Assembly (NCBI GenBank): GCA_041664605.1
Contig: JBAYKO010000001.1
Span: 83,586-147,585, forward strand
Reading direction: 5' to 3'
DNA length: 64,000 nucleotides
From: Minisyncoccota bacterium
GTDB taxonomy: Bacteria; Patescibacteriota; Minisyncoccia; Phycocordibacterales; UBA9973
Positions 21,183 to 63,319 of this stretch are shown here, one piece after another (position 1 is the first letter of the stretch; every line of letters starts with the position of its first letter). The notes under the pieces were generated by a model. That model was not told the origin of the DNA. It worked only from the letters and a program-made list of their open reading frames with translations, and did no database searches. The translations under genes and the position numbers were made by a program.

Positions 21183-21527
21183 ACTCTACTGTTTTGGTTT
21201 TACGCAAGTAGCAGAGTCAAGGGTATAATCCGTTCTTCTTTCGTGGGGTTGGATTACTTAACCCTTGGGATATCAAAAGCACATCTAGCCGTGTGTGGAC
21301 CTCTCAATATCTCGGTCGTGTCATCTTGTACTGTTATTTCTCTTTATTCAGATCATAAGATCCAGCTGTACACCAAATAGGTTTTCCCGTAAGCCATGAA
21401 TAAATGTGTAATGGGCTAGCAAAACGCGATCTAACAATTCAGATTAAAGTATAGCATGTTCAATATACTTTGTCAAATAATTAAAATATATTACGAAAAT
21501 TGCTTGACCCATACACAGTGTGTTGGG

Positions 21528-21555
21528 TTGACAAAATATTTCAATTTGCTATCAT
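21528..21555 (+). promoter_or_regulatory. Sigma70-like promoter (TTGACA-16-TATCAT)
   Basis: Near-consensus -35/-10 with 16-nt spacer, upstream of small ORF and tRNA-His. Shares the TTTGCTAT spacer/-10 junction with the promoter at 56098-56125. Confidence 0.45.
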
Positions 21556-21749
21556 ATACTCACAAATGAATTATATATTTGCAAAACATCATAGCGTAAA
21601 TCATCTCCCATAAGGGGTATTTTACGTTTTTGTTTTAAATAAACTCTTAAAGTAAATACCTCTTTCCGGAGGTTTTTTAATTTCTTTAGGAGTTTTTTTA
21701 TTTGTATTTAGTAATAAATAATTATTTAAATTAAGGAAAGGAGGTAAAA

Positions 21750-21815
21750 GTGAAATTCCCAAAGATTAATTGTTCATTTGGTGGATCTCTGGGTGGTGCA
21801 GGTGTGCATATCTAG
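21750..21815 (+). CDS. Small ORF (21 aa, MKFPKINCSFGGSLGGAGVHI) with strong SD, GTG start
   Basis: AAGGAAAGGAGGT followed by 5 nt then GTG. Followed by a 14-bp perfect hairpin and then tRNA-His. Confidence 0.3.
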   Translation: MKFPKINCSFGGSLGGAGVHI

Positions 21816-21825
21816 AGAAAAAAAT

Positions 21826-21864
21826 GAGAGAAATTTAACGGGCAAGACCTGTTAAATTTCTCTC
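21826..21864 (+). other. 14-bp perfect stem-loop (GAGAGAAATTTAAC...GTTAAATTTCTCTC) between small ORF and tRNA-His
   Basis: Perfect inverted repeat. No T-run follows, so it may be a processing/stability element rather than a terminator. Confidence 0.5.
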
Positions 21865-21871
21865 AACTTAT

Positions 21872-21948
21872 GGTCTTGGTAGCTCAATTAGAAGAGCGCT
21901 CCGTTGTGGTCGGAGTGGTTGAGGGTGCAAGTCCCTTCCAGGACCCCA
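21872..21948 (+). tRNA. tRNA-His (GUG) with genome-encoded G-1 and 3' CCA
   Basis: Manual cloverleaf: G-1:C73 pair, acceptor GTCTTGG/CCAGGAC, D-stem GCTC/GAGC, anticodon loop TTGTGGT, T-stem GAGGG/CCCTT, CCA encoded. Confidence 0.8.
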
Positions 21949-22163
21949 TACTTAGTGATTAGGTCACTAAGTAAAATTTAATAATTAATCTTCTGGCTAA
22001 TAGCTAGTCACTAGGAACTAGAAGCTAACTTATGAGTTATAAAAAGAAAAAAAGGAAAAAGAATATTATTAATCAACTCAATTACCGTTTTGGGTTGATT
22101 AAAATTGTTCTTTTAAAAATGTATAAAAGATTTTTCCAGAAAACACTTAAAAAAGGAGGGAAT

Positions 22164-54158: not shown

Positions 54159-55193
54159 TTAATTAATAAATTTCCCCGCCCTTACCACATGATCAACTAG
54201 TGTGTGAGTATACCCCATTTCGTTATCATACCAAGCTAAAACTTTTACTAAATTTCCACCAACTACTCTTGTTAATCCCAAATCAGCAATGGAACCATGT
54301 GGGTTTCCTAAAATATCACTTGAAACGAGTTCTTCTTCGGTCACATCAAAAATACCTTGCCAACGAGGATCGCTTGCTGCCTTTTTTAAAATCTCATTCA
54401 CTTCTTCTTTGGTAGTATTTCTTTTTGAAATAAAAGTAACATCAACAATAGATCCAGAAACAATCGGCACCCTAATTGAAATTCCATCAAAAAGACCTTC
54501 TAGTTGCGGAATAGCTTTGGTTATTGATATCGCTGCTCCTGTTGAAGTGGGAACAATATTATGTCCAGCTGATCTTCCTTCTCTCCAATTGTTTTTATTT
54601 GGTGCATCTACTGTTGGCTGATTGATAGTGTTTGCATGAGTTGTATTTAATAATGCTTTTTCAATACCTAATGCTTCATCTAAAATAGCAATGAGTGGAC
54701 TCCCAGCATTTGTTGTACAAGAAGCATTTGAAGTAATAATACATCTTTCTAATTCTTTTTCATTAATTCCCATTAAAACTGTAGCCCCAGGAATATCACT
54801 GGAAGGTTCATCTTTCATCGGACCAGTAACAACAACTTTTTTAGCTCCACAATCTAAATGAAATTTTGATTTTTCGAAAGAAGTGAAAAGTCCTGTGCTT
54901 TCAACCACTACATCGATATTTAAATCTTTCCACGGTAATTTTGTAGTGTCTTTTTCTGATAAAAATTTTATAGTTTTTCCTTCAATAATTAAATCTGTCC
55001 CAACTACTTCAATTTTTTTATCCCATTTTCCATAAACAGTATCGTGATGAAGTAAGTAAGCCATATTTGATATGTCACCCAAATCATTTGCTGCCACTAT
55101 TTCAATCTCGGGACGCTCCCAGGCGATTTTCAAAAAAGCTCTCCCAACTCTTCCAAAACCATTTATTGCTACACGTGTTGTTTTATTTGCCAT
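54159..55193 (-). CDS. gap: Glyceraldehyde-3-phosphate dehydrogenase (type I)
   Basis: NGFGRVGR NAD-binding, catalytic ASCTTN. Confidence 0.93.
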   Translation of the reverse strand: MANKTTRVAINGFGRVGRAFLKIAWERPEIEIVAANDLGDISNMAYLLHHDTVYGKWDKKIEVVGTDLIIEGKTIKFLSEKDTTKLPWKDLNIDVVVESTGLFTSFEKSKFHLDCGAKKVVVTGPMKDEPSSDIPGATVLMGINEKELERCIITSNASCTTNAGSPLIAILDEALGIEKALLNTTHANTINQPTVDAPNKNNWREGRSAGHNIVPTSTGAAISITKAIPQLEGLFDGISIRVPIVSGSIVDVTFISKRNTTKEEVNEILKKAASDPRWQGIFDVTEEELVSSDILGNPHGSIADLGLTRVVGGNLVKVLAWYDNEMGYTHTLVDHVVRAGKFIN

Positions 55194-55305
55194 AATTTCT
55201 TGTCCTGCGAAGCCTTGGCGAAGCAGGATGATTAATTTTTTACTTTTCAGCCATAGGCTGATCCGCCTTGGGCGGAATAACTTTTAACTTACTTGTATTA
55301 TATCA

Positions 55306-55382
55306 CCCTGTAGTGAATTTTGGAAAAATACAAAGTATAAAATCTGATTAAAATCAGATTATTTCCAAAATCTACTACGGGG
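55306..55382 (-). repeat. Divergent short member (G) of the inverted-repeat element family (F-type ends), 110 nt upstream of gap
   Basis: CCCTGTAGTGAATTTTGG ... CCAAAATCTACTACGGGG inverted repeat, similar to copy F ends. Internal palindrome AATCTGATT/AATCAGATT. Does not abut a start codon. Confidence 0.45.
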
Positions 55383-55394
55383 TACTAAATTTAA

Positions 55395-55423
55395 ATAAAA
55401 AAAACCCCGCCGTAGCGGGGTTT
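55395..55423. terminator. Bidirectional terminator (CCCCGCCGTAGCGGGG)
   Basis: Stem 55404-55419 with A7 upstream and T-run downstream. Confidence 0.7.
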
Positions 55424-55649
55424 AGGGTGCAATAGCTCTTTTATTTTTTTACCGCATCAGCGTATAGGTCTGGGATAATAGCCCGAGAGTGCCTTGATAA
55501 ATCAAGATCTCCACCATTTCCATGGCCTACCGGTGAATCTACAGGGGTCAATCGTAACTGACTTGCTTTCGTGTTGTTTTTTAAAAAATTTTAACTACTG
55601 CAAAATTACTATATCAAATCAATAATATAAGTCAAGCCTTAAAATTAAA

Positions 55650-55680
55650 TAAAAAAAGCCCCGGCTGCTGCCGGGGCTGT
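55650..55680 (-). terminator. Rho-independent terminator on minus strand (AGCCCCGGCTGCTGCCGGGGCT + A/T run)
   Basis: Stem 55658-55678. On the minus strand it is followed by TTTTTTTATTT. Confidence 0.7.
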
Positions 55681-56095
55681 AATATCCAAAGACCCACTCT
55701 TTAGATACTTTCCAGTTTACTAGGAAAAATTGCTGGTGACTTTATGGGTTTGGTCCAAAGTCAATACTCCATCAATAAATCCTAACTGTGTTTCGAAAAT
55801 TGTCTTCGAGGTTTAAACGCAAAACTTGCTACTTTTTCGCCTAGGTGCCGGCATTATTTACTCTTTGAAAGCTTAACTAATGGTTTGGGGGCACCTTCTT
55901 TCCGCCTATGCTTAATTGTACCTTTATACGTACGTTTCAGCTGATCTGCCTTGCCGAGGGGCGATATATCGCGTACCTGTGGCGTTGTATGGCGGGGCTT
56001 TTTATAAAACACCCGGGGGTTCCCGATGGAGATAAAACTCCGCTGCAATGGGGCTACCCGGTGACTAATAACCTTTGAAGAACAATTTTGTAACT
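55681..56095 (-). ncRNA. Candidate structured ncRNA (GC-rich about 400-nt gene-free block; family unassigned, strand uncertain)
   Basis: About 45% GC versus about 30% background. No credible ORF. Bracketed by a promoter-like TTGACA-16-TATACT (minus) at 56098-56125 and a minus-strand terminator at 55658-55678. Many local helices. Contains a GGAAAG/GGUGCC...GGCACC pairing that could be P4-like, but no full consensus match. Confidence 0.35.
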
Positions 56096-56097
56096 AA

Positions 56098-56125
56098 AGT
56101 ATAGCAAATCTATTAGATTTGTCAA
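56098..56125 (-). promoter_or_regulatory. Sigma70-like promoter on minus strand (TTGACA-16-TATACT)
   Basis: The reverse complement of 56098-56125 reads TTGACAAATCTAATAGATTTGCTATACT. Confidence 0.4.
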
Positions 56126-56180
56126 GTACTATTTAAATATTTAAAATACCCTTATTTTTCAAGCTATTTTTGAAATAAAT

Positions 56181-56214
56181 AAAACCCCAGTTGCGACCTA
56201 ACTGGGGTTTTATA
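56181..56214. terminator. Bidirectional terminator hairpin (CCCCAGTTGCGACCTAACTGGGG)
   Basis: Stem 56185-56207 with A/T runs on both sides. Confidence 0.65.
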
Positions 56215-56328
56215 ACGTTCTTTGAAATAGTGTACTCGTGGAGTAAACCTTCAAGGATGGATAAGAACGATTGGGCCGCTTGTTTAATAGGATAGCATAT
56301 TCAATTTTATTGTCAACTATTATTCATT

Positions 56329-56380
56329 AAGTGACACAATTTCTGCAGGTGCAGAAATTGTGTCACTTCGTGTTTTTTGC
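56329..56380 (+). terminator. 19-bp perfect hairpin plus T6 (plus-strand terminator geometry) immediately 3' of gatB stop
   Basis: AAGTGACACAATTTCTGCAG-GTG-CTGCAGAAATTGTGTCACTT then CGTGTTTTTTG. Confidence 0.6.
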
Positions 56381-56384
56381 TTAA

Positions 56385-57818
56385 CTATTTAAGTAATTCT
56401 TTTATTATTTCAATTACCACCTTGGGATTTGCGCTTCCTTTTGTTTCTTTAATCACCTGCCCAACTAAAGACATAATCGCATTTTCTTTGCCACTTTTAT
56501 AATCAGCTACAACTTTTTCATTTGCATCTAGAATTTTTTGCGCAATTATTTTTAATTCCCCTTCATCATTTTTCTGAAGTAAATTATTTTCTTTGGCATA
56601 TTCGCGAATATTTTTCCCGACTTCAAAATTCTTTCCCATTAAAATAATATCTTTCGCAGAACGAGAGTTTAATTCACTTTTTGAAACCATCAAAACTACC
56701 TCGGCTAATAATTCTGGACTTATAAACTCCCCCACTATTTTTCCTGAGCCAACAAGGTCGTTTGAAATAAAATTTGAAGTAATCCTTATTAATTCTTTAT
56801 CTTGTTTAAAATGTTTTAAAACCGCTTCAAAATATTTCCCTAATTCTTGATTATTCACATAACTCTCAATATCTTCATCTTTAATTTCAAAATCTTTTTT
56901 ATATCTATCTCTCTTCTGCCATGGAAGTTCTGGAAGAGAGTTCTTGATTTCATCTAAATCAAAAGCTTCATGAAGTTTTAATTTTGGTAAATCTGGATCA
57001 GGAAAATATCGATAGTCATGACTAGATTCTTTTTTACGCTGTGAAAATGTTTCTTGTTTATTTTCATCCCAACCACGAGTTTCTTGGACTATTTCACTTC
57101 CCTTTCCGTTTTCTAAAAGCGCAGTCATTCTTTCTATTTCAAATTTTATAGCTCTCTCAACAGTTCTAAATGAGTTTAAGTTTTTTACCTCAACTTTTGT
57201 TCCAAATTTTTCTGTATCACTCACTGAAATATTCGCTTCCACCCTCATTTCACCTTTTTCCATATTTGCTTCTGATACTCCTAAATATTTTAAAAGTAAT
57301 TGAAGTTCGCGTGCAAACTTACTTGCATCTTCTGCTGAATGAATTACTGGTTCTGTTACAAGCTCCATTAATGGCACCCCGGCACGATTAAAATCAATTA
57401 AAGAATAATCTCCTCTATCATGTTTTGAAGTAGCAGTGTCCTCTTCTAAATGCACTCGAGTAATATCTATTCCGTTTAATTTTCCACCTGAAACTATCGG
57501 GTATTTATATTGAGAAATCTGATAACCTTTTGGAATGTCTGGATAAAAATAATTTTTCCTATCAAATTCAGTAAAATCTGCAATATTCCCATCCACTGCC
57601 AAACCAACCTTAATCACATGTTCTACTGCCTTTTTGTTTATAACAGGAAGAGTTCCTGGCTGAGCTGTACAGACAGGACAAATATTTACATTTGGATTTA
57701 TTTCGTCAGGATCATTTTTAGAATCACAAAACATTTTTGTGTTAGTCTTTAGTTCCGCATGAATTTCTAATCCTATTGTGGGTTTATATTCACTCATAAT
57801 ATCTAAGTATTTTACCAA
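56385..57818 (-). CDS. gatB: Asp/Glu-tRNA amidotransferase subunit B
   Basis: PTIGLEIHAELKT N-terminus, GatB catalytic core, C-terminal YqeY-like domain. Confidence 0.92.
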   Translation of the reverse strand: MVKYLDIMSEYKPTIGLEIHAELKTNTKMFCDSKNDPDEINPNVNICPVCTAQPGTLPVINKKAVEHVIKVGLAVDGNIADFTEFDRKNYFYPDIPKGYQISQYKYPIVSGGKLNGIDITRVHLEEDTATSKHDRGDYSLIDFNRAGVPLMELVTEPVIHSAEDASKFARELQLLLKYLGVSEANMEKGEMRVEANISVSDTEKFGTKVEVKNLNSFRTVERAIKFEIERMTALLENGKGSEIVQETRGWDENKQETFSQRKKESSHDYRYFPDPDLPKLKLHEAFDLDEIKNSLPELPWQKRDRYKKDFEIKDEDIESYVNNQELGKYFEAVLKHFKQDKELIRITSNFISNDLVGSGKIVGEFISPELLAEVVLMVSKSELNSRSAKDIILMGKNFEVGKNIREYAKENNLLQKNDEGELKIIAQKILDANEKVVADYKSGKENAIMSLVGQVIKETKGSANPKVVIEIIKELLK

Positions 57819-57898: not shown

Positions 57899-58441
57899 AT
57901 GAAAATAAAACCAACAAATGTCCCTGGTTTAAAAGATTATTATAGTGAATTTGTAAGAGTTGCACACTTACAACAGGAAGCAGACACTATTATTTTGGTG
58001 ACCGCTAGGCGAATGGCGCAAAAAATCATTGCTAATTTCCCAACACACGAAGAGTTAGTTTTAAAACTCTTAGAACTCCCTGTAACATTGACTACAGGAA
58101 TCGACTTAATTGATTGGGTGGATGAAAAAATAACATTACTAGATGTAATTTTTTTAACAGCTATCAAACAATCACAAGAAAAGGGTTCAGAAGGACCAAT
58201 ACGTGCTCACTTTCTTTCAGTTTCGAAAGAATCTCTTATTTCTGAGTGTAAGTTTCATAATTACTATAGTATTAACAAGGGAGACAATTTTAAGGAAATG
58301 GAAGAAACTTGTGTAAAAATAGGGCAACACACGAATTCTTTCATTTTTCTTATGCCATCAAAAAGTAATCAACTGACTGAATATCAATTTGTGTTTCATT
58401 GCGACTTTTCCAAAAAATTTCCTACGTTTCCCTCTGTTTGA
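57899..58441 (+). CDS. Hypothetical protein (180 aa)
   Basis: ORF only. Confidence 0.45.
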   Translation: MKIKPTNVPGLKDYYSEFVRVAHLQQEADTIILVTARRMAQKIIANFPTHEELVLKLLELPVTLTTGIDLIDWVDEKITLLDVIFLTAIKQSQEKGSEGPIRAHFLSVSKESLISECKFHNYYSINKGDNFKEMEETCVKIGQHTNSFIFLMPSKSNQLTEYQFVFHCDFSKKFPTFPSV

Positions 58442-58465
58442 TGCCTGAAATTTCATATTTTAAAA

Positions 58466-58494
58466 AACCACCCAATTGGGTGGTTTTTTATTTA
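58466..58494 (+). terminator. Rho-independent terminator (CCACCCAATTGGGTGG + T-run)
   Basis: Stem 58468-58483. Same family at 59099-59114. Confidence 0.8.
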
Positions 58495-58553
58495 CTTGAC
58501 AGTTATATCTTAAAATAGTATCCTATCAACAGACATTTAGTAAAGACAAAAAA

Positions 58554-59081
58554 ATGAAAAAGTTCTTATTATTTTTGAGTTTTATTTTATTAAGCACAGT
58601 AACAGTAAAAAGTCAGATCAGACTAGATTCATTTATAGTCGATACCCCTATCACAGATTTGAAGGATATTGAAAAATATTTTCCAGGTGATTTTGGGGAT
58701 GAATTATCTTCTTGCTGTCTTAAATATGATACCGGAGGAAGAACCATAATCATTAAGTTGGTAAAATTGCGTGGCAGTAATGTCACAGGAATTTTAAAAC
58801 AAATTGACAGTCTTGGTTTTAAACCTGTTCCAACTCCATATCTTCTTGGATTGGGAATGAAATATTCATATTCAAAAATGTTTTGTGATTCTAAAAATCA
58901 TTTAGGGTGGCCAGATATTATTTCTCTGGACACCAATAATATTTGTTTCAGCAAAACTATGAGTGAAAATAGTTTTATCTATTTAACGGGTCATAGTGGG
59001 CCAGGAATTACAATTGGCAAGGTGAGATTTAGCATTATATTCCACCCAAAAGAATGGTCTTTTGCCGTGATGAAAAAATAA
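58554..59081 (+). CDS. Hypothetical secreted protein (175 aa, signal peptide)
   Basis: MKKFLLFLSFILLSTVTVKSQ signal. Confidence 0.5.
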   Translation: MKKFLLFLSFILLSTVTVKSQIRLDSFIVDTPITDLKDIEKYFPGDFGDELSSCCLKYDTGGRTIIIKLVKLRGSNVTGILKQIDSLGFKPVPTPYLLGLGMKYSYSKMFCDSKNHLGWPDIISLDTNNICFSKTMSENSFIYLTGHSGPGITIGKVRFSIIFHPKEWSFAVMKK

Positions 59082-62635: not shown

Positions 62636-63319
62636 TTATTCTTTAGTATTTAACCAATCTAATATTTCTTTATTAAAATCTTTCATATCAAAAAAATATT
62701 TTGGAAAATTTTTTAAATCAATGATTTTATTTTCTTGTCTATTGTAATTTTGAAAATCAACATAACTACTCCATTTGTATTTATTTAAAAATTCTAATGA
62801 TTTTTTTACATCCCTGATTCCTTCTTCTTTCCATTTTAAGTCAATAAGTTTTATTGGATTCAAATGAATATATGAAAAAAGATATTTTGCTTGATTGTCC
62901 TTTTCTATGTGAACAGACTTATACTTTCCTTCAAAAAGTCCACCATTACGTTCATATTTGGCATTAAAATATTTTGAGTAAGCAGTTAAAACTTTTTGCA
63001 TAAACATAGCAATAGCACTCGAATTCTGCGAAAGTCTTGCTTTCGCATTTGGTGTAAGATATATATGAAAATGATTTGGCATTAAAACCCAAGCACCAAT
63101 AAAAACTATTGATTCTCCTTTATCAAAATCCCATGCATTAATTTTTGCTCTTACAATTTGTTCTCTGAAATCAATTCTTTCTTTAGAATTACAAATGTAT
63201 AAAAGTTTTAAAAAACGATCACGATCTTCGTTATCTAAAAAAATTTCTTGTTTGCTATTTCCCCTATTGTAAATATGATAATACTCCCCATCTATAAGTG
63301 GAATTTTGCGTATAGACAT
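62636..63319 (-). mobile_element. IS200/IS605-like Y1 (HUH) transposase of the REP-associated (RAYT) type
   Basis: YHIYNRGN N-terminus, HUH motif (HFHIY), catalytic Tyr region (YIHLNPIK). 227 aa, longer than IS200 TnpA. Flanked by inverted REP hairpins. Confidence 0.75.

Follow-up and report, generated by a model that had tools for sequence, protein, structure and literature searches.

A candidate orphan noncoding RNA unit in the gatB-gap spacer of a Minisyncoccota bacterium

Results

Features of the gatB-gap spacer

The genes gatB and gap of this Minisyncoccota bacterium lie on the minus strand of the 64-kb stretch of contig analyzed here (the window), separated by a spacer of 1191 nt (55194-56384). 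This is the longest ORF-free and intergenic interval of the window, the next one measuring 849 nt and the remainder 524 nt or less. The longest ORFs located wholly within it encode 64 residues on the minus strand and 56 on the plus strand, in agreement with an earlier note on this DNA that had described a 1.2-kb interval with no credible ORF. For both GAPDH and GatB, the nearest sequences come exclusively from MAGs of Paceibacteria (Patescibacteria/CPR, Nomurabacteria-like).

The composition of the spacer is also distinctive, its GC fraction of 0.38 being the highest among the intergenic intervals of the window (0.20-0.35 for the others). Against a window average of 30.3%, the GC content rises to 43.2% at 55700-56090, 48.3% at 55800-56060 and 50% at 55839-55998, and this block is the only place in the 64 kb where 300-nt segments reach at least 45% GC. 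The value of about 45% given earlier for 55700-56090 is a fair one, although the 3' part of the block (55680-55792) has a GC content of only 35%. A block of 45% GC in a genome of 30% GC, whose genes show GC3 values of 0.15-0.20, points to either selection on the sequence or a recent acquisition.

Table 1. Features of the gatB-gap spacer and its flanks. Positions are those of the window; U2 nucleotides (U2 nt) are counted downward from window position 56092.
Feature	Position	Strand	Details
gap	54159-55193	minus	
71-aa ORF	55072-55287	plus	start inside gap, extends 94 nt into the spacer
gap's own promoter	55326-55297	minus	TTTCCA-18-TG-extended TATAAT; 3' of U3, inside the spacer
22-nt inverted repeat	55305-55326 with 55362-55383		operator-like; overlaps the gap promoter
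U3	55395-55635	minus	predicted RNA of ~200 nt; promoter TTGACT-16-TATAGT (55635-55608); terminator 55423-55402; fold z = -3.50
U2 predicted transcript	55650-56091	minus	~435 nt; inferred start near 56089-56093, to the terminator U-tail
U2 intrinsic terminator	55657-55678	minus	U2 nt 415-436; 9-bp stem with 8 GC pairs, -19.9 kcal/mol, U7 tail; TTTTTTATTT
U2 hairpin III (predicted)	55681-55709	minus	U2 nt 384-412; 12-bp stem; pair probability 0.98
U2 hairpin II (predicted)	55713-55788	minus	U2 nt 305-380; pair probabilities 0.93-0.98
U2 domain I closing helix, 3' strand (predicted)	55796-55813	minus	U2 nt 280-297
U2 GC-rich core	55839-55998	minus	50% GC; predicted multi-branch helices, including the AGGUGCC/GGCACCU hairpin
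64-aa ORF	55854-56048	minus	TTG start, very basic; shadow, not a gene
U2 domain I closing helix, 5' strand (predicted)	56070-56089	minus	U2 nt 4-23
U2 promoter	56098-56125	minus	TTGACA-16-TG-extended TATACT; 11/12 consensus positions matched
U1	56172-56316	minus	predicted RNA of ~100 nt; promoter TTGACA-16-TATCCT (56316-56289); terminator 56213-56179; fold z = -4.61
Hairpin	56329-56368		18-19 bp, directly after the gatB stop; -27.5 kcal/mol; T-run on the plus strand only
gatB	56385-57818	minus	

The spacer contains three tandem minus-strand units, U1, U2 and U3 (Table 1), each running from a near-consensus promoter to an intrinsic terminator and with no protein-coding signal. The minus-strand promoter previously read as pointing into the GC-rich block is indeed present and, moreover, is TG-extended. 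The window contains about eight instances of the same form, mostly in intergenic positions and several times immediately 5' of ORFs, and from this distribution TTGACA-16-TGnTATACT is taken as the normal promoter type of the organism and not as a chance AT-rich match. A stretch rich in AT lies upstream of the U2 promoter.

The terminator said to close the block at 55658-55678 was found as well (55678-55657). Two other hairpins had been described as bidirectional; both exist, but only the one at 56179-56213 is bidirectional, with weak T-tails, whereas that at 55402-55423 scores on the minus strand only. In total, eight terminator-like sites were counted in 1.8 kb, compared with 1.6 ± 1.4 in shuffled sequences. 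In the case of U3, a 10-bp stem joins the predicted 5' end to the bases immediately before the terminator. For U2, both ends of the putative RNA were placed from the promoter and terminator sequence alone. By consensus, this unit has the layout of an independent sRNA gene, namely a promoter and a co-oriented intrinsic terminator with no ORF between them.

This organization could also correspond to a cis-acting spacer for gap, working as an insulator and leader system. In such a case, the terminators would block read-through from gatB, while the co-directional promoters and conditional terminators would tune the transcription of gap, which would have lost its operon promoter once the insertion split it from gatB. 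The orientation of all units, co-directional with gap, agrees with this possibility, as does the presence of gap's own promoter and of the operator-like repeat within the spacer. Also, a weak similarity is observed between U2 (CAAGGCAGAUCAGCUGAAACGUA) and the 5' leader of gap (CAAGGCGGAUCAGCCUAUGGCUGAAAAGUA). However, its score of 31 does not exceed chance, the shuffle maximum being 34 and unrelated genomic DNA also reaching 31, and the idea that U2 and the leader are paralogous was discarded. Moreover, a complete unit (U3) and the gap promoter stand between U2 and gap, no riboswitch or leader family is matched, and no plausible antiterminator geometry is found. The alternative pairing available to the terminator involves a half-terminator-like sequence inside U2 (UAUAAAAAGCCCCGCC, nt 87-102), which can form 11 bp with the 3' half of the real terminator, 330 nt away. 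A cis-acting role of the block in gap expression is, then, rather improbable.

Coding potential of the block

The 64-aa ORF contained in U2 had been suspected of being a shadow within an RNA gene, and its composition points in the same direction. The GC fractions at its three codon positions are 0.49, 0.43 and 0.49, compared with 0.41-0.48, 0.29-0.39 and 0.15-0.20 in native genes, and codon periodicity is absent from this ORF as well as from every frame of the block that was tested. The ORF has no match in Pfam or PHROG, and a word-based search of 5.8 billion proteins gave no candidate. A phmmer search with a 79-aa open frame against 1.84 billion representatives returned three matches, all of them repeat proteins (FG-GAP-like and LRR-like); these were rejected as artefacts whose scores are summed across 3-8 repeat units. 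Thus, no good protein homologue of ORF 55854-56048, the finding that according to the earlier note would have spoken against an RNA, was detected in the databases searched. Furthermore, a six-frame tblastn of the whole spacer against ~1 Mb of related loci, which would reveal a pseudogene, gave no similarity.

The idea of a small protein gene, in which this ORF would be translated, agrees with a frame that is open in the transcribed orientation. Nonetheless, open frames this long are to be expected where GC content is high, stop codons being AT-rich, and the GC3 of 0.49, the lack of periodicity and the outcome of the protein searches all argue against translation, making this the most improbable of the explanations considered. 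The lack of a ribosome-binding site before the ORF is uninformative in this regard, since only 3 of the 36 genes of the window have a Shine-Dalgarno-like 4-mer.

Comparison with known RNA families

The size of the block had been taken to fit RNase P RNA or tmRNA, and an Rfam scan across the interval had been proposed as a check; neither assignment holds. With Rfam 15 at the gathering score, only two tRNAs are detected in the window. At E<=10, the searches of 55150-56420 (1271 nt) and 55645-56100 (456 nt) gave only sub-threshold matches anchored on the terminator hairpins, which are regarded as noise. ARAGORN finds the same number of tRNAs in the window (two) and no tmRNA. RNase P RNA, tmRNA, SRP, 6S, GOLLD, ROOL, HEARO, OLE, raiA, riboswitches and group I/II introns were all set aside for want of an Rfam match. 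Of the two findings that the earlier note had jointly named as refuting its RNA reading (no Rfam hit and no transcript), the first is observed. Also, a search for rnpB and ssrA in the 9.3 kb past the end of the window revealed a tRNA only.

In the conserved core of RNase P RNA, the segments CR-I (GGAAAGUCC) and CR-V (ACAGAANNNGGCUUA) flank helix P4. CR-V is not found in U2 within 3 mismatches, and the best CR-I-like match (GGAAAGUAU, 2 mismatches) is located at U2 nt 380, within a local hairpin 3' of the closed domain. The AGGUGCC/GGCACCU pairing, which had been considered reminiscent of P4, forms the stem of a local hairpin in the predicted fold (U2 nt 197-203 with 244-250, pair probability 0.96) and not a long-range pseudoknot. 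As P2 and P4 candidates, this single sequence offers many short GU-containing pairings between the segment that follows the 5' closing strand and the one immediately preceding the 3' closing strand, none of them prominent or flanked by the motifs.

A highly diverged housekeeping RNA beyond the Rfam thresholds (RNase P RNA or, with less likelihood, tmRNA or a 6S-like RNA) would be compatible with the size of the block and with a predicted helix that closes a 5' domain of ~300 nt in the manner of P1. RNase P RNAs of CPR have been reported to escape detection: they were missed at Rfam cut-offs in 10 of 35 circular CPR genomes, RF00010 thresholds had to be lowered, in some cases to 5 bits, to recover them, and many do not have some of the helices (Lui et al. 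2021, PMC8172020). Scores as low as 5 bits are not reported by searches at E<=10 such as those used here, and the negative result for RNase P has to be read with this in mind. However, no RNase P family appears at E<=10 even with the 456-nt target, CR-V is absent and the CR-I-like match is misplaced, the candidate pairings do not support a P2/P4 topology, and ~140 nt of additional hairpins follow the closing helix. For tmRNA, ARAGORN and Rfam are sufficient to exclude it. Moreover, the locus appears as a recent insertion missing from relatives, unlike what would be anticipated for an essential gene (see below). A diverged housekeeping RNA is, consequently, very unlikely, and annotation of this locus as rnpB or ssrA is to be avoided.

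Predicted secondary structure of U2

The predicted fold of U2 comprises a 5' domain (domain I), two hairpins (II and III) and the terminator, most of its helices having pair probabilities above 0.9. Domain I would be a multi-branch structure of ~300 nt enclosed by a helix of 17 bp in three segments, with pair probabilities of 0.90-0.99, which was also recovered as an inverted repeat (I11). In both U2 and U3, the predicted closing helix begins exactly at the 5' end expected from the promoter. The arms of the U2 closing helix could be read as inverted repeats, too.

A comparison of folding energies with those of shuffled sequences shows that the stability of the whole unit is biased to the minus strand, with z = -3.98, a level reached by none of 100 shuffles, whereas the plus strand gives z = -2.08. 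For the GC-rich 300-nt core alone, the stability is marginal: the minus strand has z = -2.01, which 8 of 200 shuffles equal or better, and the plus strand -1.21. The 3' hairpins (55680-55792) reach z = -3.53. Most of the excess stability of U2 comes, then, from the 3' hairpins and the terminator, and the earlier description of the stretch as full of short helices is only partly above chance, and weakly so for the GC-rich core. GNRA and UNCG tetraloops are absent from the predicted hairpin loops of U2, unlike in ornate functional RNAs. Given that the core folds only marginally better than shuffled sequences and that no homologue is available for covariation, the term structured RNA is applied to U2 as a working hypothesis.

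Homologue searches and origin of the spacer

The search for relatives of the spacer covered 80 GTDB loci around gap, together with the contigs of GAPDH relatives (83%, 77% and 75% identity) and GatB relatives (73-75%). Both nhmmer and blastn against 92 loci (~1 Mb) returned self-matches only, and a covariance model of the 160-nt core (R1) recovered only itself in 1.05 Mb. No relative was found with twelve degenerate 24-nt patterns tiling U1-U3 in JGI metagenomes and IMG/VR, nor with two IUPAC patterns in IMG/VR; the JGI scan did not return the source contig itself (Ga0376277_0000691 of JGI 3300037810, 168 kb), which indicates that this collection is incomplete. A distant-mode BLAST against phages and plasmids gave chance matches of ~30 nt only. 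The other copies that were found are 100% identical re-assemblies. Among them, an ENA copy (L081) is identical to the window throughout the spacer, and it probably derives from the same community, given that another gap locus (L085-L087), identical at the protein level, is common to both samples; for this reason, it is uninformative. Within the 64-kb window and ~9 kb of adjoining contig, no second copy of the spacer sequence exists that would reveal a MITE or another repeat, and a tandem array of the TIGR or CRISPR type was also sought and rejected.

The gatB-gap synteny is preserved in 16 of the 80 GTDB relatives, with spacers ranging from 36 nt to 2.7 kb whose contents are unrelated genes for small proteins, some of them IS200/RayT-like. 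In the nearest relatives by GatB (73-74% identity), 10-18 nt separate gatB from gap, and the distance is 10-40 nt overall among the relatives without an insertion; in the closest GAPDH relative (83% identity), rsmE is found upstream of gap. The comparison of these gene orders indicates that gatB followed by gap is the ancestral arrangement, and the short spacers or unrelated genes of the relatives identify the 1.2-kb spacer as a lineage-specific insertion into a variable site. Because close relatives do not have the spacer, an RNA encoded in it would not be an essential conserved one. At the neighboring obg-gatB junction, two ORFan genes have been gained relative to a related locus (L089).

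This history leaves room for an explanation in which the block is decaying acquired DNA, the remnant of small horizontal cassettes or mobile elements in the variable gatB-gap site. Its promoters and terminators would be left over from lost genes, any transcript would be a functionless by-product, and the high GC content would reflect recent arrival from a GC-richer donor. The behavior of the junction as a hot spot, with its range of spacer lengths and unrelated small genes, and the few nucleotides between gatB and gap in the closest GatB relatives are in line with this scenario. Donors of suitable composition exist as well, related Paceibacteria having GC contents of up to 45-50%. In addition, none of the searches yielded a relative of the block, the fold of its core is marginal, and the half-terminator-like sequence UAUAAAAAGCCCCGCC inside U2 looks like a relic. 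Nevertheless, neither the ~1 Mb from related loci nor the large protein databases contain any translated similarity, no codon periodicity is seen in the frames tested, and neither repeat copies in the window nor a tandem array are present. Moreover, three intact, near-consensus promoter/terminator pairs with start-aligned helices would be unexpected in decaying DNA under strong AT mutation pressure. Decaying acquired DNA is the main rival of the explanation favored below, though it is considered less likely than not.

Discussion

The explanation favored here, with a probability of about 0.45 and hence tentatively, is that U2 would be an independently transcribed, lineage-specific noncoding RNA gene, the largest of three tandem sRNA-like units. 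The spacer carrying these units is an insertion between gatB and gap, which were neighbors in the ancestor. According to this proposal, the housekeeping sigma factor would start transcription at ~56091 from the TTGACA-16-TGnTATACT promoter. The initial ~300 nt would then fold into the multi-branch domain, whose 17-bp closing helix would bury the 5' end, and the two stable hairpins would form 3' of it. Finally, the GC-rich intrinsic terminator would free the RNA near 55650, protecting U3 and gap downstream from read-through, and the freed RNA might work in trans, as a regulator or by binding protein. A search for targets with RNAduplex in 73 translation-start regions of the window gave no outlier, the method yielding unrealistic long-loop duplexes.

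Several lines of evidence point to a noncoding RNA gene. A GC level such as that of the block should not persist neutrally where GC3 is near 0.17. U2 has a promoter of the native type and a strong terminator in the right orientation, and terminator-like sites are enriched. There is neither a coding signal nor a protein homologue, and the fold stability is biased to the transcribed strand. The predicted closing helices of U2 and U3 are aligned with the expected transcription starts. Also, long GC-rich intergenic regions are a recognized enrichment class for structured noncoding RNAs, as exploited by the GC-IGR method (PMC6429828, PMC11109978).

On the other side, no homologue appeared in the searches and there is hence no support from conservation or covariation, the z-score of the core is marginal, GNRA/UNCG loops are missing, close relatives do not have the spacer, and no target stands out. 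The base rates of the GC-IGR survey also weigh against a noncoding RNA gene and in favor of decaying DNA: among 4714 regions, 427 were classified as 'unnamed', 607 as 'low-ranking' and 250 as mobile or repeat, compared with 55 high-ranking candidates and 10 sRNA candidates (PMC11109978), so that most such regions would be unnamed, low-ranking or mobile/repeat.

Taken together, U2 is a plausible candidate for an orphan sRNA-like noncoding unit. With respect to the unassigned structured RNA proposed in the earlier note, the noncoding character and the promoter and terminator boundaries stand, the guess at a known family does not, and the structure is kept at the level of a hypothesis. It is also conceivable, although with low probability, that U2, perhaps together with U1 and U3, represents the first member of a new Paceibacteria-specific class of stable structured RNAs. 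Such a class could act as an RNP scaffold or be a radically remodelled catalytic or housekeeping RNA whose relatives are too divergent for pattern searches.

In the literature, essentially nothing was found on small or structured RNAs in CPR/Patescibacteria. If validated, a 435-nt RNA with a strong promoter of its own would provide a useful first example from the streamlined genomes of CPR. At present, it is an orphan known from one genome and located where insertions vary among relatives, which leaves current views unchanged and opens no long-standing question. The main practical value is negative, namely to keep rnpB and ssrA labels off this locus.

Among the known systems, RNase P RNA (RF00010 type A, RF00011 type B and the CPR forms in PMC8172020) resembles U2 in its size class, in being GC-rich within an AT-rich genome, in a long helix joining the 5' end to a distal segment, as P1 does, and in having a stand-alone promoter and terminator. 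However, U2 differs from it in giving no model signal at E<=10, in the misplaced or absent CR-I and CR-V, in the unsupported P2 and P4, in the ~140 nt of hairpins 3' of the closing helix and in being a recent insertion missing in relatives. The resemblance to tmRNA (SsrA) is limited to a size of ~350-430 nt and the stand-alone layout of a stable RNA. In this case, neither a tRNA-like domain, nor a T-loop, nor a tag reading frame is detected in U2 by ARAGORN and Rfam.

Among large trans-acting regulatory RNAs, RNAIII of Staphylococcus (514 nt) is encoded between a promoter and an intrinsic terminator. Like it, U2 is predicted to be a lineage-restricted, independent unit of several hundred nucleotides that has several hairpins and ends in an intrinsic terminator. 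Nonetheless, the two share no homology, U2 contains no embedded peptide gene, and it is known here from its sequence alone. On the other hand, the 5'-3' closing stems predicted for U3 and for domain I of U2 recall the RNA polymerase-binding RNAs of the 6S/Ms1 type, a class in which poor sequence conservation is typical. The predicted folds of these units are, however, branched or with a one-sided loop, instead of a rod with a two-sided bubble, and no 6S signal is obtained with Rfam.

Finally, U2 shares with the 'unnamed' or low-ranking GC-IGR candidates (Stav 2019, PMC6429828; Narunsky 2024, PMC11109978) its length, a GC content well above background, the absence of an ORF and a number of representatives insufficient for a consensus. 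Unlike them, it has a clean promoter-terminator pair and a predicted closing helix aligned with the transcription start, which lends some added support to a discrete RNA.

Insertions and possible recombination around gatB

Between obg and gatB, the window carries two ORFans (180 and 175 aa), for which Pfam and PHROG returned no match. In the relative represented by contig L089, obg and gatB are adjacent, and gatB in the window therefore has lineage-specific insertions on both sides.

At the 3' end of the gene, contigs of the ENA assembly ERZ27249449 were compared with the window (positions 1-2315 of L081 against the window from 56551 onward). One contig, L094, breaks off within gatB near window position 56523, and in L081 the last 55 gatB codons are fused in frame to the N-terminus of a GTPase, a junction preceded by an XerC-like integrase. 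Either the 3' end of gatB has been rearranged in a strain, or the assembly is chimeric at this point. Also, a weak match to an IS200-like Y1 transposase (E=6e-4, under the Pfam cut-off) is present in the window, and the gatB-gap spacers of two relatives (L019 and L005) contain ORFs that resemble RayT/IS200 genes by eye, in keeping with a recombination-prone site.

Putative regulatory elements in the gatB-gap spacer

A 22-nt inverted repeat, its arms being 86% complementary, overlaps the -35 element of the predicted gap promoter and encloses a second palindrome formed by an 11-nt tandem unit. This repeat resembles an operator through which a transcription factor would control gap. Moreover, a promoter-like site (TTGTCA-17-TAAAAT) faces a hairpin of 18-19 bp that is followed by a T-run on the plus strand only; a transcript of ~220 nt, antisense to the predicted minus-strand small RNA unit U1, is possible.

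Features of the window discussed in this section
Feature	Position	Strand	Details
ORFan, 92 aa	20904-21182
Intergenic region	21183-22031		849 nt
Strong promoters, divergent pair	21476; 21528	minus; plus	inside 21183-22031
Unit of ~110 nt	ends at terminator 21658-21673	plus	inside 21183-22031
21-aa ORF	21750		downstream of terminator 21658-21673; strong GGAGG ribosome-binding site
RRM-domain RNA-binding protein, 94 aa	40268-40552	minus	PF00076, E=2e-21
Intergenic region	40553-40818		266 nt
Inverted repeat	55305-55383
Second palindrome	55338-55359
Promoter-like site	56119-56147	plus
Possible antisense transcript	56119-56376	plus
Hairpin	56329-56368
Two ORFans	57899-59081	plus
Y1 transposase match	62636-63319	minus

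Other intergenic regions and translation initiation

The second longest intergenic region of the window (GC 0.35) has no match in Rfam. Within it, a leader of ~260 nt, with a fold z-score of only -1.08, precedes the 92-aa ORFan on the minus strand, and the 21-aa ORF is followed by a hairpin and then by tRNA-His.

A Shine-Dalgarno-like 4-mer was found at -18 to -5 in only 3 of the 36 long ORFs of the whole window, counted from longest-ORF starts, part of which are perhaps wrong. In this genome, translation may for the most part start without Shine-Dalgarno pairing.

Finally, the RRM protein gene adjoins a GC-richer intergenic region, and a similar gene is present in L089. The RRM protein of the window would be a candidate partner of small RNAs in this lineage.
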